A stretch of DNA of 40,002 nt. It comes from Atractiella rhizophila (taxonomy: Eukaryota). The stretch's first letter is position 1. Each line of letters opens with the position of its first letter. The stretch spans positions 1 to 40,002 of the forward strand of contig MU271607.1 in assembly GCA_021432655.1 (NCBI GenBank). The letters are read 5' to 3'. Below are positions 2,180 through 39,097 of the stretch, piece by piece. The position numbers and the translations under genes are program-made. The notes under the pieces were generated by a model. That model searched no databases. It had not been told where the DNA came from and saw nothing but the letters and a program-made list of their open reading frames with translations.

Positions 2180-2954
2180 CACCTTACATGATCGAGGACT
2201 TGCTTGGATCGAACGCTCTTGAAACTCGCCTTACACCGTCTGTTGTGTAGCTATCGACAAGAAATAGCGAAAATAAAATGTCCCATTTATTGTTACATCA
2301 GCTCACATCCTTCGGGTCGCATGCTCGGATTCATCTCTCCATCGGGAGCCTGATCAAAAGTAGCTGAATTACGCAACCGTCCATTCAAACAGTCTCAATA
2401 TCCGACGTCTATGTGTTTGAAAGAGAGCGATAAATATACGCAGGATAAGATGTTGTCACAGGCACTGAATAAATGAAGCGGTACAGGATGTCGATGATGA
2501 GCCTGAGACGGGAGCTACAAAGGAAGTAAAGCAAGAACAGCAAAAAACGGCCGTGTGTTTCAACTTCTCGAGATTGTCCAATTCCACGAGAATGAGGCGG
2601 AAGATTAGGGAGCAAAGATGGGACACGAGTGTTTGCCGATATCATCTCTCTGGAAACGATGATATGGACGATGTTGAAGGGTCGCTGATGGGGTGCGAAG
2701 GGCAGGGAAGATATGAAGGAGCGTAGACGGTGAGAAAGAAATGTGTGATTTAAAGGTGGCGACGGCCGCACTTGGAAAAAGGAGAGTGTTAGTTAAAGAG
2801 AGGATGAGCGCTGACGAGCTGTGGTCCATGGTGCGAGAAACATCTAAAACGGAAAGGGAACGAAGAATAGAGTCCCTTCGCACGTAGTCAGTATTTCATT
2901 TCGACGGGCTGAGAGAATAAGAATGGCGCACAGGGATTCCTACAAGGAATGAGT

Positions 2955-4061
2955 TTAGGACATCGGGGGATAGTCTTCGTCTTCCTTCGGCAGCCTCCGC
3001 TGAACCACAACAAATAATTTCAGCCAGACTGGAAAAGCGTGACGGCAGAAAGGAAGGCGAACTTTGCCTAGCCCGACTCCGACACTTATTGTATCCAGAG
3101 CAAGCGTGGCATTCACTGTGATACCCAGGAGGTTCACATCCTGTATAATCATTAGAAGGAGGCGATGAGAGAACACAAGATACTTACTACGCTACTGTAG
3201 ACCATAATCACAGACGTGGTGAGTAAAAGATTGGGGTCAGTTCATCATGATGCGACTTACATGCTGCTGATAACGACGTCAGCAAACACACATGATCGAT
3301 GGAACGAGAGGACACTCACTCGCTGTCGGCGGAAAAATGGTCCAATTCAGCAATAACTCAGCACATGAGCGGGCAAACTCACCTACTGTAAGAGCAACAG
3401 TGGTCAGCCCAGAAATCAACAAAAGAAAGTTTGTGGAAGAAGAACTTACTCTCTATTCAATAGAATCATGACAAGCGGGTCGCGGTGACCTTGATAAGCA
3501 GGCTTTTGGCACTAGAAAGTATAAACTTACGCGCTGCGATGGAATGTCGCCGTCAGCACTATCCTACGTAACGGAGAGGGAGGGGAGGCTCACCAGCTGC
3601 GACGAAGAATAATCATCGAGCACAGTCAATGTTCTGATTGCAATGATGAAACAATGCTTACCCGCTGATACAGACGTCAGCAAAGATGCAAAAATAGAGA
3701 AACACACGTACCTTCTGTAATTCGCAATTCGAGGAATCACAAGCAGTGAGATTAGTTGATTATTTAGAGCGTTGCACTTACTCCCTATCGCGGAATCAGA
3801 CTTCAATTCTGTCAATCGAGGGACGGAGACCTACCAACTGGGCCCACCAGAACAAGGACGCTCCGTCAGAGGTAAGAAATAATGGCGTGAACAAGAGCGC
3901 ACCATCGAGCCTTTATCCTCCTGCCGCCAATGTGTCAATGATTTACTCAGGTCGAAACACAAGTTAACTTACGCTGCTGGGCTAGATTCGGGGGAGGCAG
4001 CCAAGGCAAGCTGAGTGGTCCACAGTCCCAAAGCGAGAGAGATGAGGGCAGCAGGGCGCAT
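2955..4061 (-). CDS. Micro-exon gene encoding an 88-aa small secreted prepro-peptide (15 exons, ten of them 3 nt)
   Basis: Exons on the minus strand: 4061-3973, 3920-3903, 3837-3835, 3784-3782, 3714-3712, 3664-3662, 3596-3594, 3533-3531, 3452-3450, 3385-3383, 3322-3320, 3263-3261, 3194-3188, 3140-3063, 2999-2955. All 14 introns are GT..AG, 47-78 nt, with branch-like YTRAY/YTGAC motifs. The joined 267 nt is stop-free: MRPAALISLALGLWTTQLALAASPESSPAARIKARCWESGCADSDISVDVNLLGITVNATLALDTISVGVGLGKRRLPKEDEDYPPMS*. Confidence 0.85.
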
Positions 4062-4287
4062 TGTGGATTTTTCGAAAGTGATGATGTACAAAAACAAAGT
4101 GAAAGAGGCCGAAATGAAGGAGGGGAAGGGCCAGGAGCGAGCAGATCGAAAAGATAACGTCGAAGGCAGGCTGCGAGGGCGGGAAAAAGTGAGGGTGCCA
4201 GGCGGCGGGGATATTATACCACTTTTTGGACCGCTGTTCGCGAATTCGACCGCCTTGTAATTAGAAGTTTTGGCGCCGTCCGTTTAC

Positions 4288-11303: not shown

Positions 11304-14300
11304 ATGGTGTCTAAGTCCCACAGGCGTCTTGACTTGAGGAAGGCCAATTTGGCGGCTGTTCAAGGTGCGATGTCCTTCCACGAGCGTGCACTTTGTATCT
11401 GACGCCTATTCGTTGGTAGATGTTCCCTCCACCCCACCGCTTGGTAGCTCAAAGCTCGACTCCTCTCTTAAACGCCACACTGCTCTCATTAAAAAGCTCA
11501 AAACTTCCCTCCACAGCGCTCCGTCGGCGGAGTTCATTAAAGAGATCAAAGGGTTGACCATAATGAAATACATGGAGGAAGTCGTCAGTGCGGTCGTGGA
11601 GGGCACGGGGAAATGTAGGAAGGAAGGAGAGGTGCAAGGAGCTGTCGAGGTGCGTTTCCACTCAACTTGACTTGAAATGGAGCGACGCGGAACTGTTTCC
11701 GTTACGTCCATTCATAACCACCTGGGTTGTTTCAATGTCCAAGCATAAGCCCCCCTGTCTGTCACATCCATTAGGTATGCTGCCATTGATGGGCTGCTCT
11801 CTCGAATATAACCGGGCTTCCCGACATTCTTCATGGCCTGTCAATAATTAATGCGCGCGCAGGAGAATAATACGCGCCATTCACTATGCTTGCCAACCGT
11901 GAGAACGCTGCGTTATTCTCGAAAAGTGACTAGCCTCGCTAAAGCCCTCAGGACCGTTGATCCTGACACGCTCCATGTCAATTCTACAAAGTCTCACTAA
12001 ATTAGCCAAGACCGGCAGCTAACAGAATTATGTAGGTCATGTCCGCGATGCACCAACGCTTTCCAACACTGTTCACGCCGCCATTAACCGCAAACTTCCT
12101 CTCTCTTCTGGCACCCAGCAAAGCCTCCACTAGTGCAGCGCCTGAACAACGAGAGAAGGAAGATACCGCAAGAGTTTCTCGCCAACGAGTACTTCTACGC
12201 ATTTTCGCAGAACTCGAGCTCGTAGCTTTGGTGGTGATGCCCACTGGACCAACGAAGAACGAGGGCGAAAACACATTTCAGATCATCAAAGAACTCGTAT
12301 GTCGTCCTCTTCCCAGAATCACCAGAGAAGAGCTAATAATGCAATTATTGGTGTAAAGTTGACGGCAGACAAGGAGGCGCTCCTCCTTTCCATTCCTGTA
12401 GCTACGGCTTTCGCAAAGCAATTGGGCAATCTATTCCTTCCAAGCAGTGCAGACAACCCCCCTCTTGTTGATGATGCAGACAATTCACTTGGAGACGAAG
12501 ATATCATCCCCGTTCCCATGAAAGAAAAGTTCAAGAAACTTTTCACGCAGTATTATGATGCTCTAAGCAGGAGGGCTGTCAAAGAGAACCTTGTTCGCTA
12601 TCCAGTTGTTCGTACGGCTTAGGCTGACTGGTTTGAATCAGTTCATGAAGGAAACGGACCGCCGGAATCACGAAGCATACATTCGCTCAGGTCAAATTTT
12701 CGAGGATCGAGCTCAGAGTTACGAGACTCTGGCCAAGTCCTTTGAGAAGCTATGGGCTGGCGTGACGAGGTTTGTTCTCCGCCTCTATCGAACACAATCT
12801 ACAGCCTGAATATGTACCTGCAGCCTCTCAGAAGTCTTGGGAACATCCGTGCCTGAGCTGCCTTCCCTTCCTTCAACGACAATTACTTCTACTATTTCTT
12901 TTGGAGGCTCTACTGGTGGACCGACCGAAGGAGAAGGTGTGGGTAGCATCTGGGCTGATGAAGAAGAGCGAAAGTTTTACGAGGACATCGTGGACCTCAA
13001 AGGCGAAGTTCCTGGGAGCGTCCTTGTTTCCACCCAACAACCGCAGACCAGTAATGCACCAGCCAAACCTACTTCCGTCCCAGAACCTATCAAGGCAGAA
13101 GAGGCAGAAGACGACGATGACGCGTACGTTTTCCAGACCTCGTTCAGTCACCAAATTGAACTTGCATTTGGACAGACCCCCAACCTTAAAAGAAGATCCT
13201 GAGGAAGCTCTCCCTCCCGCACCCGCCGCACAGTTGCAAGCTATACTCGCCCGACTGCCAGAGTGTACAAGTCGAGCAACCATCGACAAAGCTGCTGTTG
13301 ATTTCGCTTTCTTGAATAGCAAACCGGCGAGAAAACGCCTGACAAGAGTACGTATTGGACGAAATGTTTGAATCAAGCTTAACACCCAACAGTTCTTAGC
13401 ATCCGTTAGCAGGAATCGTACCGACTTGTTGCCGTACTATGCTCGGCTGACAGCGACGCTGAGCAAGTATATGCCGGATATTGGGAGTGGGTTGATTGCT
13501 GCAGTGAGTTAACACCTTTCCGTTGACACTGATTTTGATTATTCCGTGAAGCTAGAAGACGAATTCCGCTACCTGCAAAGGAAAAAAAGCGTCAATCTTG
13601 CTGAAACGAGAGCGAAGGTTAGTACATCCTTGTGCATCACTTGTCGCGGCTGAAGCAACGTAGAACACGCGCTACCTTGCAGAGCTCACCAAATTCAAGA
13701 TCACGCCAAACCATCTCATCCTTTTCTGCATCAAGTCGTGTGTCGATGACCTTACCGGACCCAATGTTGACAATCTCTGTAATCTCCTGGAAGGCTCTGG
13801 TCGCTTCTTACTAAAATCTGAAGCGACTGGAGAGAAGACTGCTTCCCTGGTTGGTATTCTGACTCTACTATATGTAGCAAAGATTCATGAGGCCCGAATA
13901 GTTGGAGGTGATGAAACGGAAAAAGGCGGCTCAAAATTTCACCCATCAGCAAATAACTATGTTGGAAAATGCTTATTACCAGGTTAGTAGTGACGACAAT
14001 GTGTGCGACAAGCTCATAAGCTCGTTCAGTGCGATCCGCCAGACAGAGTCGTTATCCCGCCAAAGGAAAGAACGCCAATGGAACTGTTTCTGCGACACCT
14101 GTTTTTCAATGTCTTGACTAAAAAGACGATCGACTCTGTGATAAAGACGTTGAGAAAGATGCATTGGGAGGATCCCAAGGTAAGCGTTAATTTAGACCCC
14201 GATATGCAGCTCAGCTCCGTGCAGATATTTCAGTTGCTTGTGTCGCACTTTACGAAAGTTTGGAAAGCTAAATTCAGCAATATTCATCTGTTCGCTATCC

Positions 14301-15839
14301 TTCTTCATGATTTATCAAAGTTTCATCCGGACTTTCACGTTGTGGTCGTCGATCAAGTGCTGGAGAACCTAAAAGTCGGTATGGAAGTATGTAACTTTTT
14401 AAACGTCTCTACACAGTCTTATTTCTCTCTCAAGGTCAATAACTTTAAATACAATCAGCAGAGGATCGCCACCATCAAGTACATTGGCGAGATGTACAAC
14501 TATCGCGTTATCGATTCGAAAGTCGTTCTCGATGTGCTCTGGACCCTCACTATGTTTGGACATCGTGTGTCTCGACTTTGCGTCCCTAACCTGATTAAAT
14601 GCTATTTCCAGCTGGAAATCGCCCATCACCTGAGGATCCTTCTTTACGAGATGCCGCCGATGATTTCTTTAGAGTCCGGTTGACGTGCACTCTTCTGGAC
14701 ACTTGCGGATCATGCTTTGATCGAGGACAGCTCAGAAAGAAGCTTGACCATTTTCTCATCTTCTTCCAGGTAGTTCCCTTTCACTGCTTGAACATACCAT
14801 TCTAACAATATATGCCTCAGATGTACATTCTTGCGAAGCAAACTCCACCAATGGATGTCGGCTTTATGATCAACGACACTTTTGATGTTAGTTCGTTTAT
14901 CTTCCGGTCCCGTCGACTAACGATGTCAGCTAGTCATTACGCCCCAAGATGACGATGATGAAGACATACGAGGAAGCTTCGAATGCAGTAGACAACATGG
15001 TTGCCGCTAATCAGGCTGCCGTAGAATCCCACGAGCCTGGTGTGTAACATCATGCAGTTCGGCGTGATCTCACAGCATTTTAGCTGAAGAAGAGCTCGAT
15101 GACGATGCATCAGATGGAGAAGTCGATATTGCCAGTGATCCCATGGAACTAGCTTCAGACAGCGAGTCAAGCGATGAAGCTGAAGAAGACGTATGTGATT
15201 ATTCTTGGCCATACAATTAATCTGAAATCCGGTATGCGTAGCCTGATGCTCATGAGGCCGAAAGGGACGAGAGTGAAGACGAAGACGAGATGGAAATTGG
15301 TCGAAACACCTCCTACGGTCCTACTGTCGAGGATGAAGAGGAATTCGAAAGGGAACTGGCGAAGATGATGATTGACACTAGTGACTCTAGGAAGGCCGCG
15401 AATGAAAAGAGAACGGCCCTCGCAGATGTGGCGTTGCCTGTTTGGAAGAAAAAAGAAAAGATCCGGGATGAAGAACTGGATGATGAGGAGGATGGGCTTC
15501 AACACATGAAGTTCACGGTATTGACGAAGAAAGGGAACAAAAATCAGGTATGCTATTCTTCCCTCGATTCGACAAAATGCTAATTAGTTGCAGACACGGA
15601 CGCTGCAAGTACCTGTTGATAGTGCTATCGCTGTACACACTCGAAGCAAACAAGAGCAAGTGAGGGCAGAACAGCAGCAGCTCAAGAAGCTTGTCTTGGA
15701 GTTCGAAGAAAGAGAGGAAGCTCAGGAGAAGAAGAGTGAGTGATGCAGATGACTTGGGCTTTTTTGACAACGTCTTTCAGGTCTGCAAGAAAGTATGGCG
15801 AAGAGAGGTATCAGAATCAAGTACGGTGAACCAGCATAA
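11304..15839 (+). CDS. UPF2: Nonsense-mediated decay factor Upf2/Nmd2 (three MIF4G domains plus acidic C-terminus), more than 20 exons
   Basis: LDSSLKRHTALIKKLK; IWADEEERKFYEDIVDL; IDKAAVDFAFLNSKPARKRL; MLENAYYQCDPP; NNFKYNQQRIATIKYIGEMYNYRVIDS; DDFFRVRLTCTLLDTCGSCF; EEFERELAKMM; FTVLTKKGNKNQTRTLQVPVDS. Ends GEPA* at 15839. Confidence 0.94.
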
Positions 15840-16337: not shown

Positions 16338-17711
16338 ATGCAGAAACCCTTGAACGATCATCACCTTGACAGTCACGGTGTAGTAGCCAGTGTGGTACCA
16401 CCGCTCTCAGCAGCAGAGTATGCCTTCTGTGCCTCCATCCCCAAGCTCGAAGTCCATGCACATCTGAACGGCTCCATCCCACGATCTACTATCGCTGAGC
16501 TCAAAGAAAAGTTCTTGGAGGAAAATGGAGTTGAAGGGAATGAGGACCTCGTCAGCTGGGACCTTGACGAATTCACCATGGAGAAGATTGATGAGTGCGT
16601 GCCCAGGTGTCCTTTATGACTTTCGCAGTGCTAACGTCGTCGTGGGTGTATGATGACATAGCTTCTTTCCACTCTTCAGCTCCAAGATCTATCGTCTGAC
16701 GTCTTCTCCTTCCCTCCTCGCTCATGCCACCGCGGCAGTTTTGGACTACTTTCAATCCCACAATGTCGCCTATCTGGAACTCCGTTCTACTCCTCGTCTT
16801 TTTGCCAACTTGGATTCCTTTCTGCCTTACATCCAGACGATTCTCTCGTCCATCTCTGATTTCGCGGCCACAACCTCTCAAAAATATCGCCCATGGAAGA
16901 TGGTCACGAAACTGGTCCTCAGCGTCGATCGTCGTCATTCCATGTCTACTGCCTCTCAGATCATAGACGCTGCCATCATGCTCAAAAATCAGGGAGAGCC
17001 TGTTGTTGGCATTGACTTATGCGGAGATCCGAGATCAGGAGATCCAGTAGCTTTCAGGGAGTTATTCCTGAAAGCGAAGCACGCTGGATTGGGGACCACA
17101 GTACACTTTGCTGAGGTTCGTCTTTACGTCGTCAGTCTTGTGTCGCTTCGTACGCAAGATACATGATGTATTCAGTCCGCTGAGTTGAGGTTGAATAATA
17201 GATTCCTGATCCTCCTTCTGGCTTGGATTCAGATATGGAAGCACTTCGGTGCCTCACACCTGACCGTTTAGGCCATGGCACATACATTCACCGCTCATTG
17301 TCGACAGAACAGTGGGTGCTAGACTCTAAACAGAGGATTGCGATAGAGATGTGCATCACTTCGAACGTGTTTTGCGGCACGGTTGCATCGTTGGAAGAAC
17401 ATCATGTTCGATGGGCTATTCAGAATGAAGTGCCCATCCTCATTTGTGTGAGAGTTGTTTCTTTTGTTAACGGAGTGGGTGATAACTACCCTTTACCACA
17501 ACAGACGGACGATTCGCTGGTTTTCCGATGCTCACCAACAGACGAGTACTCCCTCGTGCTCAGCCTGATACCTGGGGCAGGACATGCGAGGAGAAAGGTG
17601 CTAATGGACATCCTGTCTCGTGGCGTTGAGCATCTGTTCTGCGACGAAGAAGAAAAGCAGTCTATCAAGCGATTGATCGAGAGTGTACCGTCAAGCCTTG
17701 AAGCGAATTGA
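16338..17711 (+). CDS. ADAL: Adenosine deaminase-like protein (ADAL/MAPDA-type, putative N6-methyl-AMP deaminase)
   Basis: PKLEVHAHLNGSI, YLELRSTPR, VGIDLCGDP, TVHFAE, PDRLGHGT, IEMCITSN, ILICTDD. The HAHLNGS and LELRSTPR motifs are typical of ADAL rather than classical ADA. Confidence 0.82.
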
Positions 17712-23332: not shown

Positions 23333-25572
23333 ATGCCTCCCTCAGCATCTAAACAAAAGCGCCTGGCAGAAAAGGTGAGTCTTCCCGAGTTCCATCTTCA
23401 TCAGTACTCGAAGCTGATCGTTCGTTTCTGTGTACAGGCTGCAAAAGCAGCTTCCAAAGGAGTGAAGGAGAATGGCTCTACCTCCGCTCCATCCACCAAC
23501 GGAACCTCCACCCCGATCGCAGCTTCCAGTCGGACGTCGATGGATGGCTTGGACGAGATGAGCAAGCTCAAATTGGCCACCGATCGCTCAGGCAGCGGCG
23601 TCTTGACGAGCGACCCTCAGAGTAGGGATATCCAGATGGAGAGTTACACGCTTTCTTTCCACGGAAGACTGTTAATCGAGAACGCGAGCATCGCGCTCAA
23701 TTACGGACAGAGGTGAGTTTTTCGCTGCACGATTTGGGAAAGGAAGAGTGATGCGAACTCGTGTTTAGGTATGGGCTGTTGGGAGAGAATGGGTCTGGAA
23801 AGGTGAGCCTTGTTTTCCGGGTGGCGAGAGGACTGGAATGCTGATTTACATCGTCGAAATAGACCACTTTCCTCCGCTCACTCGCTGAGCGAGACGTCGA
23901 GATCCCTTCGCACATTGATGTCTATCTCGTCGCCGGCGAGGTCGAACCTTCGGATGTGAACGCGTTAGATTTCATCGTGAACTCGGCTCGAGAAAAGGTG
24001 GACCGGTTAGAGAAGGAATTGGAGGAGATGATGACCTCTGAATTCCCGGACGATGCCTTGATTCAACAGAAGACGGATGAATTGGAAGAGCTCGATCCTT
24101 CCACTTTCGAGAGCAAGGCTTCTTCCATCCTTCACGGTCTCGGTTTCACGGCTCAGACGATGCTGAAGAGGACCAGGGATATGTCTGGTGGTTGGAGGAT
24201 GCGTGTTGCTCTCGCAAGGGCCCTCTTCATCCGTCCTCACCTTCTTCTCCTCGACGAGCCCACCAATCACTTGGACCTGGAGGCTGTCGTGTGGCTCGAA
24301 GCCTATCTCAGCACTTACAGTCACATCCTCGTCATCACTTCACACTCTGCCGATTTCATGGATTCAATTTGCACAAATATCATGGACCTCAATCACCAAC
24401 GTCGTTTGACCTACTACGGAGGAAATTACTCAGCATACGTGAAGACAAAGACGGAAAACGAAGTCAATCAGATGAAGGCGTACCAAAAGCAGCAGGATGA
24501 GGTTTGTCCTTTCCATCCTTCCAATCCTCACATCGATGGCTGATAGAGATTGATAACAGATTGCACATATCAAGAAGTTCATCGCTTCCGCCGGTACCTA
24601 CGCAAACTTGGTGAAGCAAGCGAAATCGAAACAGAAGATCATCGACAAAATGGAAGCCGCAGGTCTCATCGAGCCCGTCTTTGTTCCTAAACCTCTCCGG
24701 TTCAACTTTGACGACATTCGAAAGATGCCTCCTCCCATCATCGCTTTCAATGATGTCGCATTTTCCTATTCGGGCAAGAAGGAGGATTTCTTGTATCAAG
24801 ACCTTTCCTTCGGTGTTGATATGGACTCGCGTGTGGCTATTGTTGGACAGAACGGAACTGGCAAATCTACTCTCCTCAATCTCATCACTGGGGACTTGAT
24901 GCCAGTCAAGGGAAGCGTATCCCGCCACTCAGGTCTCAAACTTGGTACGTCCAACTTCTCTTTTCCATGTCGATGCTAATGATTGACATCCTGGTCCATG
25001 TAGCCAAATACTCTCAGCACTCCGCGGACCAGTTACCGTACGACAAATCCCCTCTGGAGCACTTCGAGTCCACATACAAGCAACGTTTCCCCGAACGAGA
25101 CACTCAAGCCTGGCGCGCTCAGCTTGGTCGTTTCGGTCTTTCAGGCGCACATCAAACTGCCGCCATCCGCACGCTCTCTGACGGATTGCGGAATCGAGTC
25201 GTCTTCTCCCAACTGGCAATGGAGCAACCTCACGTCCTGCTCCTCGACGAACCTACGAACCATCTTGATATGGGTTCGATCGACGCTCTGGCGCGAGCGA
25301 TCAAGGAGTATGAGGGAGGAGTCGTCATTGTTTCTCACGATTTCAGACTCATCAGTCAGGTCGCGGAGGAATTGTGGGAGGTTAAGGATAAGAAGATTGT
25401 CAATCTCACTAAGCAGGATATCAATATTCAGCAGTACAAGAAGATCCTGTCGGATCGGTCGCAAAAGTTCGTTTTTCCTTACGTTCTTTCTGACAATGGG
25501 TATTGATGAAGGAATAGGCAAATCGAAAAGGCCAAATTGGTTTCGAAGGCTGCGAAATCTAACAAGGTCTAG
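23333..25572 (+). CDS. ARB1: ABC-F ATPase Arb1/ABCF2
   Basis: [14 protein letters not shown]; two ABC cassettes ([56 protein letters not shown]); linker [19 protein letters not shown]; no TM domains. Confidence 0.95.
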
Positions 25573-30905: not shown

Positions 30906-31347
30906 TTCGAGGACTGCTTCTTCCTGAGCGCGGACCGCTAGAACTCAAACCATGTCGAGGAACTCGAACAGGGTCTGAAGGAAGCCGAAAAGTTGAAGCT
31001 AGAGAGCCTATAGTCACTCATGTACTAGGAACGTCCGTAGCTACTACTAGCTCATGCGATCCAAGCGAGCGGAGCAGGTTAGGAAGACGCAGCGGAGCTG
31101 GAAGCGCTGTAGGAGGCGGAAAGGTTGGAGAGGGCGTTACCGTTGCCCAAACTGTAGGCAAGGTCGTTGCTAGGGGGTCGTTTAAGAACGGCTCGTCGAA
31201 GCGGACCTGTGCCTTCATGGTCTATACCATCAAGAGGGCAGGGAGCTCAAAGCCCTATCAGCTTCTTCATTACTACCTCCACAGTACCGAAAGTCTGTAA
31301 GACCCGACTGATCCGCCACCCCTAAACCGATCTACTCTTGCTCGAGA

Positions 31348-32256
31348 NNNNNNNNNNNNNNNNNNNNNNNNNNNNNNNNNNNNNNNNNNNNNNNNNNNNN
31401 NNNNNNNNNNNNNNNNNNNNNNNNNNNNNNNNNNNNNNNNNNNNNNNNNNNNNNNNNNNNNNNNNNNNNNNNNNNNNNNNNNNNNNNNNNNNNNNNNNNN
31501 NNNNNNNNNNNNNNNNNNNNNNNNNNNNNNNNNNNNNNNNNNNNNNNNNNNNNNNNNNNNNNNNNNNNNNNNNNNNNNNNNNNNNNNNNNNNNNNNNNNN
31601 NNNNNNNNNNNNNNNNNNNNNNNNNNNNNNNNNNNNNNNNNNNNNNNNNNNNNNNNNNNNNNNNNNNNNNNNNNNNNNNNNNNNNNNNNNNNNNNNNNNN
31701 NNNNNNNNNNNNNNNNNNNNNNNNNNNNNNNNNNNNNNNNNNNNNNNNNNNNNNNNNNNNNNNNNNNNNNNNNNNNNNNNNNNNNNNNNNNNNNNNNNNN
31801 NNNNNNNNNNNNNNNNNNNNNNNNNNNNNNNNNNNNNNNNNNNNNNNNNNNNNNNNNNNNNNNNNNNNNNNNNNNNNNNNNNNNNNNNNNNNNNNNNNNN
31901 NNNNNNNNNNNNNNNNNNNNNNNNNNNNNNNNNNNNNNNNNNNNNNNNNNNNNNNNNNNNNNNNNNNNNNNNNNNNNNNNNNNNNNNNNNNNNNNNNNNN
32001 NNNNNNNNNNNNNNNNNNNNNNNNNNNNNNNNNNNNNNNNNNNNNNNNNNNNNNNNNNNNNNNNNNNNNNNNNNNNNNNNNNNNNNNNNNNNNNNNNNNN
32101 NNNNNNNNNNNNNNNNNNNNNNNNNNNNNNNNNNNNNNNNNNNNNNNNNNNNNNNNNNNNNNNNNNNNNNNNNNNNNNNNNNNNNNNNNNNNNNNNNNNN
32201 NNNNNNNNNNNNNNNNNNNNNNNNNNNNNNNNNNNNNNNNNNNNNNNNNNNNNNNN
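31348..32256. other. Assembly gap (909 N)
   Basis: Run of N inside the LTR element. Confidence 1.
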
Positions 32257-32586
32257 TCAGTCCATGCAGAACTTGAGCAACGAGCATATGAGAGGGGGCA
32301 ACAGTCTAGACTAACTAAACTAGAAATTCGGCCAAAGCTCAAGCTGAAAGCGAAACTTTAGAAACTTTCCACCTCTTCTGTAGCCTAAACACGAACTCTT
32401 CCATTTAGGTGAAAGAGGAGCTGCGCAGCAGCAGCACTTTGACTGGGTCATAAGTCGAGGTGGCTAGCTGAAGTGTCCGCGCCCCGGGGTGTGTAGCCAC
32501 ACCTACTCGAGCTCGACGGGTAAACCGTGCAAAGCGTCCAGGACTCCCCTTGCCCTCAAACCTAACTGCTGGTTCCTCTGTAGGCC

Positions 32587-34986
32587 GTGTACCACTCACT
32601 ACTAGGAGGAGAGGGTGAAGGTAAGGAGATTGGTAAAGAAAGAAAACGTCGAGGAACTCAGGCCGATTGGGGTCCACCGGCTCGGACGTTACGGTCTGTA
32701 CTCTCCTCGCACGGTATCAAACACGAACACACGGCTGCTTACACTCCTCAACAAAATGGTGTCGCGGAGCGTCTCAACCTCACTATTGCTGCTCTCATTC
32801 GTTCCACCCTCCATTCCTCCGATCTCCCCAAAAAGCTGTGGGGAGAGCTTGCCGTCGCAGCAATCCACATCATAAATCGTCGTCCAACGTCCGCGCTTGA
32901 AGGCAAGACGCCGTTTGAAGCCTGGACGGGCAAGAAACCGTCAGTTGAACACTTGCGAGTGCTGGGATGCAAAACTTACAGCCTTATCCCGCCTGAACCG
33001 AACCGACAAAAGCTTGATGCACGTTCGTGGGAAGGGAGATTGGTTGGTTATGACTGGGAAAGCAAGACTTATCGAATCTACAATCCCAAGAATGGGTCAG
33101 TAACCAAACACCTGCATGTTCAATTCGACGAGACCTACCCTGCATCTCTCCTGCAACCTGTCGAAGTCCAAACGAACGAAGTGATGGACCCTCCTGCTCC
33201 AAAAGAACAGTCAGAGAAGGTAGGAGACGGAGAAGAACAAAATGAGGGGGAGAGACCCACCGAAGTTCCATCGAAGGCGAAGCCTGACACACTTCCGCCT
33301 CGCGAACGCTCCCAGCGTACACGCCGTTCTCCTGCAGAAGCTCAGAAAGAAAACAGAACAAAGTATTTCGGGGACTCACCTCTTTCTGACGCTGTCGCCC
33401 GCATCACCGTTGCCTCGCCCACGCGAAACCTCACTCCGTCCTATGAGGAAGCTGTCAATGGTCCAAATGCCTCTCGTTGGAAGGACGCTTTCGACGAGGA
33501 GAGAGGGTCATGGAAAGAGAGAGAAGTTGGGGAGATGGGTCCGTTGCCTGAGGGGGAAAACGCAATTGGTTCGCGTTGGGTATTGAGGGAGAAGTTGGGT
33601 CCAGATGGAGAAACCATCCGTTTCCGTGCAAGGGTCGTTGCCCAAGGCTTCACGCAGCGCGAGGGCATCGACTATCAAGAAACCTTCTCCCCGGTCCTCT
33701 CCATGCCGTCGTTCCGCCTGATCCTGTCCATCGCTGCGAAGAATAAGTGGCCTGTCCATATGGTCGACATTTCAGCGGCATATCTCTACGGGAAACTTGA
33801 CAAACCTGTGTACCTTCGACCTCCTCCTGGCTGGGAAAATCCCGAACACCCAGACTGGGTCATTAAAGTCACGAAAGGAGTGTACGGTCTTCATCAGAGT
33901 GGTCGCGTTTGGAACGGGGATGCGAATGAGAAGTTGAAGAGCATGGGCTTCAAACAGTGCAAGTCAGAATCAACTATCTACACGAAGAGGGATGAGAAGA
34001 CTGGTAGATACGTACTGGTGGCAGTTTATGTCGACGACTTCCTTATCGTTGCCGAAAGCGACGAAGAAGCTGCACCGGTCAAAGAAGAACTTAGAAGACA
34101 TTACAAACTCAAAGATGAAGGCAGAGCTCACCATTTCCTTGGAATTCGCATTATCCAATCCAACGACGGAATCTCCATTGACCAAGAAGCCTACGTTGAG
34201 CGCCTGTTGGAGAAGTTTGGGATGGCAAACTGCAAGCCAGTTTCAACCCCGTTCGAACTTGGACAGAAGTTAGAACCAGCGACGGAGGAGGACAAAGAAG
34301 CTCACATCGACGAGCCGTGGACCGGTCGCTATCGAGAAGCTGTCGGCTCTCTGCTATTCCTCATGGTCGCCACTCGACCGGACCTCGCTTTCGCCGTCAC
34401 GCAAGTTGCTCAGTTCGCTGAGAAGCCTTCGTCGCAGCACTGGAAGGCCGTGAAGAGGATCTTTCGTTACCTGCGAGGCACCTCAGACTTGAAGATAGTC
34501 TACCAAAGTGGAGGAGAAGAACTTACTGGTTACTCAGATTCAGACTTTGCCGCTTCGCACGATCGTAAGTCGATTTCCGGAACACTGTTCATAAATGCTG
34601 GTGGAGCGGTTGTTTGGAGAAGCAAGAAGCAATCCGTTGTTACCCTCTCAAGCACTGAGGCTGAATACGTTGCTCTTTCCGTCGCCGCAAGGGAAGCTTC
34701 GTGGCTCCGCAACCTTCTCAACGACCTCGGTTTCCCTATCGACGGTCCGATCGACATCTTTGGCGACAACCTAGGCTCCCATCAGCTTGCCAACAACCCT
34801 GTCTTTCGACAACGAACGAAGCACATCGACATACCTTTCCACTACACCCGCGAATGTGTCTTCAACGGCAAAATCAAGCTGCTTTACATGGATACGAAGG
34901 ACCTTCCTGCAGATATGCTTACGAAAGGTGTTTCGAGGATGAAGATGGACAATGCGATGAAGGAGATTGGAATGGATGGAAAGTAG
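32587..34986 (+). CDS. pol: Copia pol fragment: C-terminal half of integrase, reverse transcriptase and RNase H (homology starts near 32700)
   Basis: GIKHEHTAAYTPQQNGVAER, KLDARS, HVQFDE, RFRARVVAQGFTQREGIDYQETFSPV, VDISAAYLYG, YVDD, YSDSDFA, SSTEAEY, RTKHIDIPFHY. The frame is uninterrupted. Confidence 0.95.
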   Translation: MYHSLLGGEGEGKEIGKERKRRGTQADWGPPARTLRSVLSSHGIKHEHTAAYTPQQNGVAERLNLTIAALIRSTLHSSDLPKKLWGELAVAAIHIINRRPTSALEGKTPFEAWTGKKPSVEHLRVLGCKTYSLIPPEPNRQKLDARSWEGRLVGYDWESKTYRIYNPKNGSVTKHLHVQFDETYPASLLQPVEVQTNEVMDPPAPKEQSEKVGDGEEQNEGERPTEVPSKAKPDTLPPRERSQRTRRSPAEAQKENRTKYFGDSPLSDAVARITVASPTRNLTPSYEEAVNGPNASRWKDAFDEERGSWKEREVGEMGPLPEGENAIGSRWVLREKLGPDGETIRFRARVVAQGFTQREGIDYQETFSPVLSMPSFRLILSIAAKNKWPVHMVDISAAYLYGKLDKPVYLRPPPGWENPEHPDWVIKVTKGVYGLHQSGRVWNGDANEKLKSMGFKQCKSESTIYTKRDEKTGRYVLVAVYVDDFLIVAESDEEAAPVKEELRRHYKLKDEGRAHHFLGIRIIQSNDGISIDQEAYVERLLEKFGMANCKPVSTPFELGQKLEPATEEDKEAHIDEPWTGRYREAVGSLLFLMVATRPDLAFAVTQVAQFAEKPSSQHWKAVKRIFRYLRGTSDLKIVYQSGGEELTGYSDSDFAASHDRKSISGTLFINAGGAVVWRSKKQSVVTLSSTEAEYVALSVAAREASWLRNLLNDLGFPIDGPIDIFGDNLGSHQLANNPVFRQRTKHIDIPFHYTRECVFNGKIKLLYMDTKDLPADMLTKGVSRMKMDNAMKEIGMDGK

Positions 34987-37121: not shown

Positions 37122-39097
37122 TCACTCTTCAGCTAAAGCAGTTCGAAGCCACAGATCCAACCTATGTCCTTTCTCTGTCGCCGCCCATCGCTTCTCCACC
37201 CAACCGCCTTTCAGCTCCAACGTCCAAACGGCCACGCTCAAACCTTGCTCGCCGCTCGTGACCTTCACTCGCGCTCCATCTCTTCTCGCCTCTCCAAGTT
37301 TATCCACCTTCCACTCCTTCCCGCTCCCTCCATCTCCATCTCCGCCGCCACCACCTCCACCTTCGGAATGAATCAATCCGTCTGCGACGGCGCGAGCGAT
37401 TTGAGAGTGGATCTCGTCGTATCGCACTGTTGAAGAAGGCGAGAGACGGACTAGGATCGTCCGGCCATACACTGTGAGTAGGATATGACCTCCTATTGCG
37501 CCGATGCCTTTTGCTGCTGCTCCACTTTGTTCTTCCTTTCCTATCACGCTAGCTGCACCGACTAGAGAAGAAGAGGAAAAATCGAAAGGTGTGATCGAGT
37601 AGGAGGTGCTTCCTTCCGGAAGATGGGGTAGGAGGTGGTGTTTATGGAAGTTCGAGAGGCGGGTGTGAGTGGAGCGGAGGAGGGAGATGTAGGAGAGGAG
37701 GGATAAGAGGGGCGAGAGGAGAGATTCCGCCTTTTCTTTCCCGCCCAGTTTGCTTAGAGGGTTGAGTGGTCAAGGAGGGCAGTGGTTTGGTGCTGGAAAG
37801 AAGAGCTGTTGGCCGAGTTTATTGCAAAGGAGAGAAAGGTGTGGATCAGATGCGCGGCGATGAGGGTAGCATAAGCTGAGAGGGTAGGGTCTAGTTCGAC
37901 TTCCTCCTCTTGGGGTTTGGAAGAGTAAGAGATGTCGAGCACAGCTCCACTGGGTAGAGCGAGGGAGAACGACTCTTCCCCGCGCCGCTCAACGCGTTCC
38001 ATCGACCTCGCGTCCTTCTGGACCTTTTCGCCCACCCACCCAAATCTTAATACCTACTGATCTTGAAGATGAAAGAAGAGAAGACTGACTGCCTCCCACA
38101 TCGCTTTTTCGCAAGCTCTCCATCTTTCTTGCTCCCACTTCGCTTCTCCCTCTTCATCCTGCGAACTAGATGGCCGTTCCCAAACCCCTCTCTTTCCCTC
38201 CACACCCTTCAAACCGATCCTCAACTTCTTCTTCTCCTCCCCCTCTCCTCCTCCTGCACTACTGCTAGATCCGACATCAACAACAACCCGCACGCCTCCA
38301 GCAGGATTGACTCCAAAACCGGCGCCGATTCCCCTCTCCTTCCTTCCCAAATCATCCCTCCGAATAGTCCAACCCTCATTCCTGGCACCAATCCACTCCC
38401 TCCACTCCTTCTCCGCCCCATCCAACGCCGTCTTAATCTGCTTCTCCGCCGCAAAGAAAACTTGAGCGGCCTCAGCAATGTCCCTCCTCTTCCTCCCGAG
38501 CGCGACGGCGGACAACTCGAGCGATTCGTACTCTGTGCTCGGCGGATGGAGCACGCGAGTTGGGTGGAGGGAACCGGAGGGTAGAGGGAGAGAGGAGGGG
38601 TCTAAGTAGGTCGATGGGTCCGTGGGGTCGTCCAATGGGTGGAAGAGGAGGTTGAGGGTGGTGAGTGCGGCTGAAAGCGCGTTTTGGGCTTTTCTGCTCT
38701 CCATCGATCGTTGTGAGCTTCAATCTCCACCCTCCCCATGCCAAAGAAAGAAAGGGAGAGAAGGGAGAGGGACGGACGCGAGTTCAATCCAAGCTTTTTC
38801 TTGCACTCCTTCCAGTTCCGCCCTTCCGATCTCCCTCGTCCTCTTCCGTTTGCCTTCTCCTTCCTTCCCTTCCTCCTCTTCTCCTCCCTCCGTCATAGCT
38901 TGAACCTTCTCAATCGTGAGCGACCCAAAGTCTCCTCCATTGAGATCCCAGAGTTGAGGTAGAAGTGTGGAGAGGGCTTTGGAGGGGTCGGAGGAGGGAG
39001 ATGAGGAGCGGTAGATGGGCTGGGAGGTCTGGGGAGAGATGTCCCAATATTTGAGACCGCCATTTTCAGGTTCAGGTTGGAGGGAGAGGAGGGACAT
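37122..39097 (-). CDS. MED17: Mediator subunit Med17 (Srb4)-like, with an apparent frameshift near 37760
   Basis: MSLLSLQPEP..YWDISPQTSQPIY..ALSTLLPQLWDLNGGDFGSLT..acidic linker..AQNALSAALTTLNLL..KRRDIAEAAQVFFAAEKQIKTALDGAEKEWREWIGARNEGWTI. This resembles my recollection of the fungal Med17 N-terminal architecture; not verified by search. Confidence 0.6.

Follow-up and report, generated by a model that had tools for sequence, protein, structure and literature searches.

A gene on the minus strand of the Atractiella rhizophila contig MU271607.1, within the stretch of 40,002 nucleotides analysed here (the window), probably encodes a real, orphan, secreted pre-pro-peptide, part of which is assembled from nine successive exons of only 3 nt each. 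RNA contigs show that the gene is expressed, with the tiny exons spliced together in frame and intron 14 excised, so that L-G-K-R-R is encoded in the mRNA. We propose that the product is an 89-aa pre-pro-peptide that undergoes processing by a Kex2-type convertase, a reading to which we give a probability of roughly 0.4. An earlier sequence-only reading of the same DNA had described a doubly processed secreted peptide, and that proposal is a fair hypothesis of which the C-terminal half is well founded.

When the reverse complement of 4250-2850 was read by its GT..AG borders, a start codon was found at 4061-4059 and the stop codon TAA at 2957-2955, which confirms the limits of 2955..4061 that the sequence-only reading had given. 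The start codon is the earliest ATG of its open frame and has A at position -3; the 123 upstream bases covered by RNA contigs contain no ATG. The contig ends at the outer border of this leader are only a weak hint of the transcript start, and a TATAAT-like box lies near 4213-4218, about 35 nt upstream beyond the leader. Scripted joining of the 15 exons gave 267 nt in frame and an 88-aa product, so that the splice model matched exactly the protein reconstructed earlier. The spliced product contains each feature listed for that protein: a signal peptide with LALA at its end, then IKAR and ADSD, the N-A-T-bearing alternating stretch, GKRR and an acidic tail. The loop CWESGC does begin at the joint of exons 2 and 3, the micro-exon junction at which it had been said to start. 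The frame and features thus stand as described; the length of 88 aa does not, because an RNA contig from run X6 and the public gene model P0001 both give 89 aa. Every intron in the micro-exon tract is GT..AG and 47-78 nt long. The coordinates of all features are collected in Table 1.

Table 1. Features of the gene and of its surroundings (window coordinates; strand given where reported).
Feature	Position	Strand	Content or evidence
5' untranslated leader	4062..4184	-	RNA contigs of three runs stop at 4184, 4174, 4169
Exon 1, 89 nt	3973..4061	-	Start codon, predicted signal peptide (residues 1-21, A-L-A end), start of Ser/Pro-rich pro-piece
Exon 2, 18 nt	3903..3920	-	R-I-K-A-R and first two bases of first Cys codon
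Exons 3-11, nine successive 3-nt exons, all phase 2	3320..3837	-	C-x4-C loop and acidic spacer
Exons 3-7, 3 nt each	3837-3835, 3784-3782, 3714-3712, 3664-3662, 3596-3594	-	
Exons 8-11, 3 nt each	3533-3531, 3452-3450, 3385-3383, 3322-3320	-	
Exon 12, 6 nt in RNA, adds one Ser	3266-3261	-	X6 loose end at 3140; P0001 reads C-S-I-S-V
Exon 13, 7 nt	3188..3194	-	Splice model, X6 loose end, P0001
Exon 14, 78 nt	3063..3140	-	Most of the beta-type core, N-A-T sequon, L-G-K of the putative cut site
Intron 14, 63 nt	3000..3062	-	Weak GTTCGC donor; in frame without stop; removal makes K|R-R
Exon 15, coding part, 45 nt	2955..2999	-	R-R, 12-residue acidic tail with D-Y-P-P-[MV]-S, stop codon
3' UTR intron, 56 nt	2876..2931	-	GT..AG; 23 nt past stop codon
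Further 3' UTR	2711..2875	-	At least 165 nt; RNA contigs continue past 2711
Housekeeping gene pieces	13994-14683, 16657-17711, 23863-25506, 38054-38719		MIF4G domain, adenosine deaminase, ABC-F type double ABC ATPase, Mediator subunit 17, in that order

Four of the 24 listed sequencing runs were examined (7 of the 24 are on record as RNA): X6 is on record as a soil metatranscriptome, X3 and X7 were taken as RNA by guess, and X1 is DNA. The small shares of the other 20 runs are uninformative on habitat. RNA contigs of X3, X6 and X7 cover exon 1, in which 29 of 30 residues match P0001. The joint 2999/3063, by which intron 14 is removed and GK|RR is formed, occurs in two of the three RNA-type runs (X3 and X6) and in none of the contigs of the DNA run X1, where no splice joints at all were found; its presence in X3 and X6 demonstrates that the K|R-R junction is real. 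In total, RNA contigs show the removal of 11 of the 14 coding introns (2, 3, 5-7 and 9-14). The X6 contig carries 27 loose letters behind 3140 that correspond to the last five letters of intron 8 followed by exons 9, 10, 11, 12 and 13, and introns 9-13 were therefore spliced in this transcript. In X3, a contig joins 3712 to 3534 through five letters that represent exons 6 and 7, which establishes the splicing of introns 5-7, and a loose end at 3785 shows exon 2 joined to exons 3 and 4. Thus, exons 3-4, 5-8 and 9-11 are each seen joined in RNA. Both the X6 contig and P0001 use the upstream AG of a CAGCAG tandem acceptor at exon 12; exon 12 therefore has 6 nt and the product 89 aa, with ADSDS before ISV. 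The sequence-only reading had taken the 3-nt form of this exon (3263-3261), hence the ten 3-nt exons of its 88-aa model. Exon 10 starts with C in the X6 contig, like the X1 allele at 3385, a synonymous change. The 3' UTR intron is removed as well, with the joint 2874/2931 in X3 and X6 and 10 fitting loose letters in X7.

Introns 4 and 8 were observed in the retained state only, with their neighbours removed, intron 4 in X3 and intron 8 in both X3 and X6; the X3 contig described above extends into both of them. These two introns may be slow or regulated splicing steps. Intron 4 (3715-3781) has its only CTRAY match 37 nt from the acceptor, and intron 8 (3453-3530), at 78 nt the longest of all, lacks any match to the CTRAY branch site. 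Intron 1 is covered solely by an X3 contig that joins 3140 to 3972 with the intervening letters unreported, and gives no direct sight of its removal. The micro-exon-coded part had earlier been called potentially variable, a suggestion that the RNA does not bear out: no exon-skipped RNA was found among the contigs of X3, X6 and X7, all RNA pieces observed include the tiny exons, and the form without the nine exons exists as the public gene model P0001 only.

Exons of 7 nt or less contribute 40 of the 270 coding bases. The pattern AG-NNN-GTRNGY occurs at 10 sites inside the gene, and shuffles predict 3.9 sites per 40-kb window on both strands together. Five further sites lie outside the gene (26961, 23887 and 16273 on the minus strand, 8441 and 23126 on the plus strand); these could be single 3-nt exons of other genes, their count being within the chance expectation of 3.9 per window. 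In the basidiomycete Coprinopsis cinerea, 27 single 3-nt exons have been reported in 26 genes (PMC12230235), and the portions of that report consulted here make no mention of a run of nine.

Using the 78-aa open frame over exons 14-15 as a query, we found two relatives only among 5.8 billion proteins, and a repeat with the better of them returned the same two; phmmer against 1.84 billion representatives retrieved P0002 only. NCBI lists both relatives as 'hypothetical proteins' from Atractiella rhizophila. P0001, of 80 aa, is this gene in a slightly different strain or allelic form: over exons 1, 14 and 15 it differs at two residues, of which one lies in the signal peptide and the other in the tail. 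In its model, exon 2 is followed directly by the 6-nt exon, so that the nine 3-nt exons, and with them the second Cys, are lost. The 50-aa P0002 is a second version with a model that begins within intron 12. The run X1 contains both versions of exon 14 at equal depth, and the variant contig translates exactly to the P0002 form. A tblastn search with P0001 and P0002 found the gene itself only, with no second copy inside the window. Scanning metagenomes with an alignment of exon 14 and both relatives returned 71 pattern matches but no relative, and a scan with a degenerate pattern of the 12-residue tail gave no match. Pfam returned nothing at E values up to 10 save DUF3778 (E 0.21, below the cut-off), the PDB sequences gave no usable match (one at E 2.9), and the protein Atlas gave no usable feature match. 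The structural neighbours offered by the Atlas were discarded as meaningless, resting on a model of pLDDT 0.44. We found no literature on small secreted proteins of Atractiella. As far as protein databases show, the protein thus appears to be an orphan of the species or genus; since genes of this kind are easily mis-annotated, relatives in other fungi may be hidden.

Exon 14 is the most diverged part between the two versions. Eight of its 78 nt differ, six changes being non-synonymous in five codons and two synonymous, and the resulting pN/pS of 1.2 comes from only these 8 changes; purifying selection on the supposed mature part is therefore not shown. The five replacements are D/S, L/V, A/G, I/T and V/L, and all except I/T keep the hydrophobic/polar pattern. 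In exon 15, none of the 45 nt is changed between versions and the tail is identical in P0002, and a single M-to-V change at the second-to-last residue is seen in P0001 and in the RNA of X3 and X6. We dropped the idea that the identity of the tail reflects a special constraint because the low divergence there is regional, the 204 nt of 2805-3008 carrying one listed difference in the X1 contig. Among the listed differences between the window and the second version in X1, the 132 nt of 3009-3140 hold 15 substitutions and one indel, compared with about 10 substitutions in about 820 nt upstream and one in 204 nt downstream, a contrast that is approximate because 18 further differences of the table lie outside those listed. 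This clustering may mark 3009-3140 as a hot spot of divergence or as the trace of an old conversion event.

These data also bear on whether the frame has a function at all. It could be incidental or decaying, with a transcript that serves another purpose as a splicing-regulated or non-coding RNA and yields no stable peptide. The X3 and X6 contigs that retain introns 4 and 8 would end the frame early, as this explanation expects, and it agrees with the pN/pS of about 1.2 in exon 14, one of the largest coding exons, and with the lack of relatives beyond one species in the searches above. However, the frame stays open across 14 splice junctions, the nine 3-nt exons share one phase, and the sole listed difference in a micro-exon (3385) is synonymous. 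Moreover, the second version keeps exon 14 open with an identical tail, and translation would start at the first ATG of the transcript, with A at -3. We regard a non-functional frame as very improbable.

The N terminus of the product contains Arg2, a 17-residue hydrophobic stretch up to residue 21 and A-L-A at -3/-1 by rule-based features, and the AF2 model places a helix at residues 4-20. These features fit the classical n/h/c layout of a signal peptide, in agreement with the signal peptide ending LALA of the sequence-only reading, and the protein is likely to enter the secretory pathway. The pro-piece that follows, ASPESSPAARIKAR, is rich in Ser, Pro and Ala, and pLDDT is below 50 at residues 26-34 of the AF2 model. 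It ends in the IKAR site, whose P4, P2 and P1 residues are Ile, Ala and Arg, respectively. At Kex2 sites P4 prefers Leu, other aliphatic residues being possible, and searches for K2PP effectors used KR, RR or LxxR (PMC8528282). The IKAR site fits a loose aliphatic-x-x-R rule only, and such a motif occurs in the first half of 35% of random 68-mers (n=20000); the site is not beyond chance. The motif that had been read as an LxxR-type site is thus present, but with Ala at P2 and 35% of random sequences qualifying it carries little weight, and a cut after I-K-A-R is doubtful.

By eye, the core behind the acidic spacer consists of three units of about nine residues, I-[ST]-V-x-[VA]-x-L-x-[GL]. In windows starting at residues 41-69 of the 89-aa form, the hydrophobic moment is 1.0-2.0 at the beta angle (170 degrees) and 0.2-1.0 at the alpha angle (100 degrees), with the window starting at 60 as the one exception (0.81 vs 0.62). 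The excess of the beta moment over residues 41-69 upholds the alternating beta-type stretch with N-A-T described earlier. Likewise, the AF2 model of P0001 contains strands at 38-44, 47-54 and 57-64, at a low-confidence mean pLDDT of 55.5. The N-A-T sequon is kept in both relatives. A self-association test with four copies of the P0001 segment 36-66 reached 0.04, the mark being 0.32, and was counted neither for nor against.

The same stretch could be thought to span a membrane. In such a type I single-pass membrane microprotein, the Cys loop would lie in the lumen or outside, a hydrophobic stretch of 28 residues would form the span, K-R-R would act as the stop-transfer signal by the positive-inside rule, and the 12-residue acidic tail would be cytosolic. 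The order of parts in the spliced product fits this arrangement, mean Kyte-Doolittle hydropathy over 19 residues peaks at about 1.56 by hand sum (9-residue windows reach 1.2-1.7), and the M/V difference keeps a hydrophobic residue at the last position of Y-P-P-[MV], which we take to be a Y-x-x-hydrophobic sorting motif. However, hydropathy is borderline, the stretch contains two Asp and two Asn, its pattern alternates strictly, with a low alpha moment and a high beta moment, and the AF2 model assigns strands to it and a helix to the signal peptide. Hand sums with the Hessa and Wimley-White scales gave an insertion energy that is unfavourable or borderline, and a kept N-A-T sequon would be useless inside a membrane span. 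We consider a membrane anchor improbable.

The strongest single argument for processing is the L-G-K-R sequence behind the core, in which P4 Leu, P2 Lys and P1 Arg are all three the residues preferred by Kex2 (PMC8528282). L-x-K-R occurs in 0.9% of random 68-mers, which places the C-terminal site beyond chance, compared with 28% for any [KR]R (n=20000). The basic site GKRR of the sequence-only reading is formed in the mature mRNA, and L-G-K-R is kept in two of the two relatives. In the AF2 model, residues 65-80 are coil, and L-G-K-R lies in an exposed, unstructured stretch behind the last strand. For the predicted cut at this site by a Kex2-type convertase, we put the odds just short of even.

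The basic residues and the tail might instead belong to a small protein that stays uncut, of which 68 residues would be secreted or wall-bound as a whole after removal of the signal peptide. Such a protein would show the same signal-peptide features, a dibasic pair is common by chance (28%), and a tail that is identical in P0002 and nearly so in P0001 is what one expects of a functional protein part. Against this, fungal proteins that carry a site of the L-G-K-R kind through the Golgi are as a rule cut. Also against it stand the exposed and unstructured position of L-G-K-R in the AF2 model and the rarity by chance (0.9%) of what is a preferred Kex2 context (PMC8528282). We consider the uncut form somewhat unlikely. 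Several points also count against processing as such: the acidic body, with two Cys only, differs from typical Cys-rich effectors; confidence in the AF2 model is low (pLDDT 55.5) and in the Atlas model lower still (0.44); a dibasic pair is found in 28% of random sequences and IKAR has no statistical weight; and K-R-R between a hydrophobic stretch and a Y-x-x-hydrophobic tail would also suit a membrane anchor.

The processed pre-pro-peptide remains the preferred reading, and its maturation can be outlined as follows. In the ER, the predicted signal peptide (residues 1-21) would be cleaved off behind A-L-A. A Kex2-type convertase would next cut after L-G-K-R (or K-R-R) in the late Golgi and free the acidic tail of 12-13 residues, and a Kex1-type carboxypeptidase would then trim the basic residues, as in yeast alpha-factor maturation, to leave a body that ends in G-L-G. 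The Ser/Pro-rich N-terminal piece of 14 residues may be lost through a further cut after I-K-A-R. The resulting peptide would be strongly acidic, with a net charge of about -5, and would have 39 residues with both cuts and 53 with the C-terminal cut alone; a C-x4-C loop would precede three short amphipathic beta strands. By analogy with the repellents of Ustilago, its most likely behaviour would be self-association into sheets at the hyphal surface or wall; alternatively, it might act as a soluble signal or a host-directed effector.

The tail is acidic and carries D-Y-P-P-[MV]-S. In nearly all plant tyrosine-sulfated peptide hormones, D-Y occurs in an acidic context, and the hormone lies at the C terminus of a precursor of similar size (PMC6698702). 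By analogy, the tail rather than the beta core might be the active part, such that the L-G-K-R cut would release from a root-dwelling fungus a 12-13-residue acidic D-Y-P-P peptide that mimics or competes with these hormones, and the beta core with its Cys loop would be a carrier or pro-region. We consider this idea far-fetched.

The gene lies in a neighbourhood of ordinary housekeeping genes in pieces (Table 1), and no cluster of genes for secreted proteins surrounds it in the window. A block of 19% G+C at 31001-32000 stands directly before an 800-aa open frame at 32584-34986, which matches RVT_2 (copia-type reverse transcriptase, E 4.5e-68) and, at E 1.8e-23, a retroviral SH3-like domain; a match to the integrase core rve_3 is below the cut-off at 20.8 bits. 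The segment 32584-34986 is a retrotransposon that has AT-rich DNA beside it.

Should the processing prove real, a root-inhabiting, early-diverging lineage of basidiomycetes (Pucciniomycotina, Atractiellomycetes) would have a Kex2 peptide precursor with one core that is flanked on both sides; the secreted peptides of fungi of this kind have hardly been studied. Neither public gene model is correct: one drops nine codons, that of the second Cys among them, and the other begins within an intron. Secretome predictions and peptidomics databases for this fungus therefore cannot currently find the product.

Among known systems, hydrophobins have eight Cys in a conserved pattern, and we rejected membership because the product has two Cys only and no Pfam hydrophobin match. 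The micro-exon genes (MEGs) of Schistosoma have a first exon for the signal peptide, symmetric micro-exons of 6-36 nt that hold most of the coding sequence, and variation by exon skipping. The present gene resembles them in its leading signal-peptide exon, its predicted small secreted product and its symmetric tiny exons that could be skipped without a frame shift. We rejected an assignment to the Schistosoma type, as exons of up to 7 nt hold only 40 of the 270 coding bases, the tiny exons have 3 nt and not 6-36 nt, and no exon-skipped RNA was seen in the runs examined. A tyrosylprotein sulfotransferase is not known from fungi. The plant precursors of PSK, PSY, RGF and CIF resemble the predicted precursor in their size of about 80-90 residues, the signal peptide and a C-terminal acidic D-Y peptide (PMC6698702), but nothing in the peptide is alike beyond D-Y, and the tail here has only 12 residues, four of them behind Tyr.

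In the K2PP effectors SnTox3, ToxA and SIX1/4/6, a signal peptide precedes a short piece of disorder type whose final Arg has an aliphatic residue at P4 (PMC8528282), and the layout predicted here looks similar. Here, by comparison, P4 is Ile and P2 is Ala, giving neither KR/RR nor a strict LxxR, a folded Cys-rich domain is lacking, and the strong site is C-terminal, not N-terminal. Atractiella, moreover, is a root endophyte and no known pathogen, and phmmer, Pfam and PDB revealed no sequence relation; the product is not demonstrably a K2PP effector. KEPs resemble the predicted product in their signal peptide and in having a short peptide next to a site of the L-x-K-R type, but they require several repeated cores between Kex2 sites (PMC6339444, PMC9769878), whereas the present protein has a single core of three strand-like units without cut sites between them. 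With one dibasic site and one core in an 89-aa product, and hence no repeated cores, KEP membership was rejected.

Rep1 of Ustilago maydis is cleaved in the secretory pathway, and the peptides released assemble on aerial hyphae into amphipathic amyloid fibrils (PMC3133707). Both proteins would be basidiomycete pre-pro-proteins, and the product predicted here is of similar size, amphipathic and of beta character. Rep1 gives 11 peptides from repeats (PMC3133707), in contrast to the one core and one strong site found here, and the two share no sequence similarity. The repellent peptides of Ustilago would thus be the nearest functional analogue, and by comparison with all these systems the product looks like one more lineage-specific small secreted pre-pro-peptide, of which the unusual part is its encoding.
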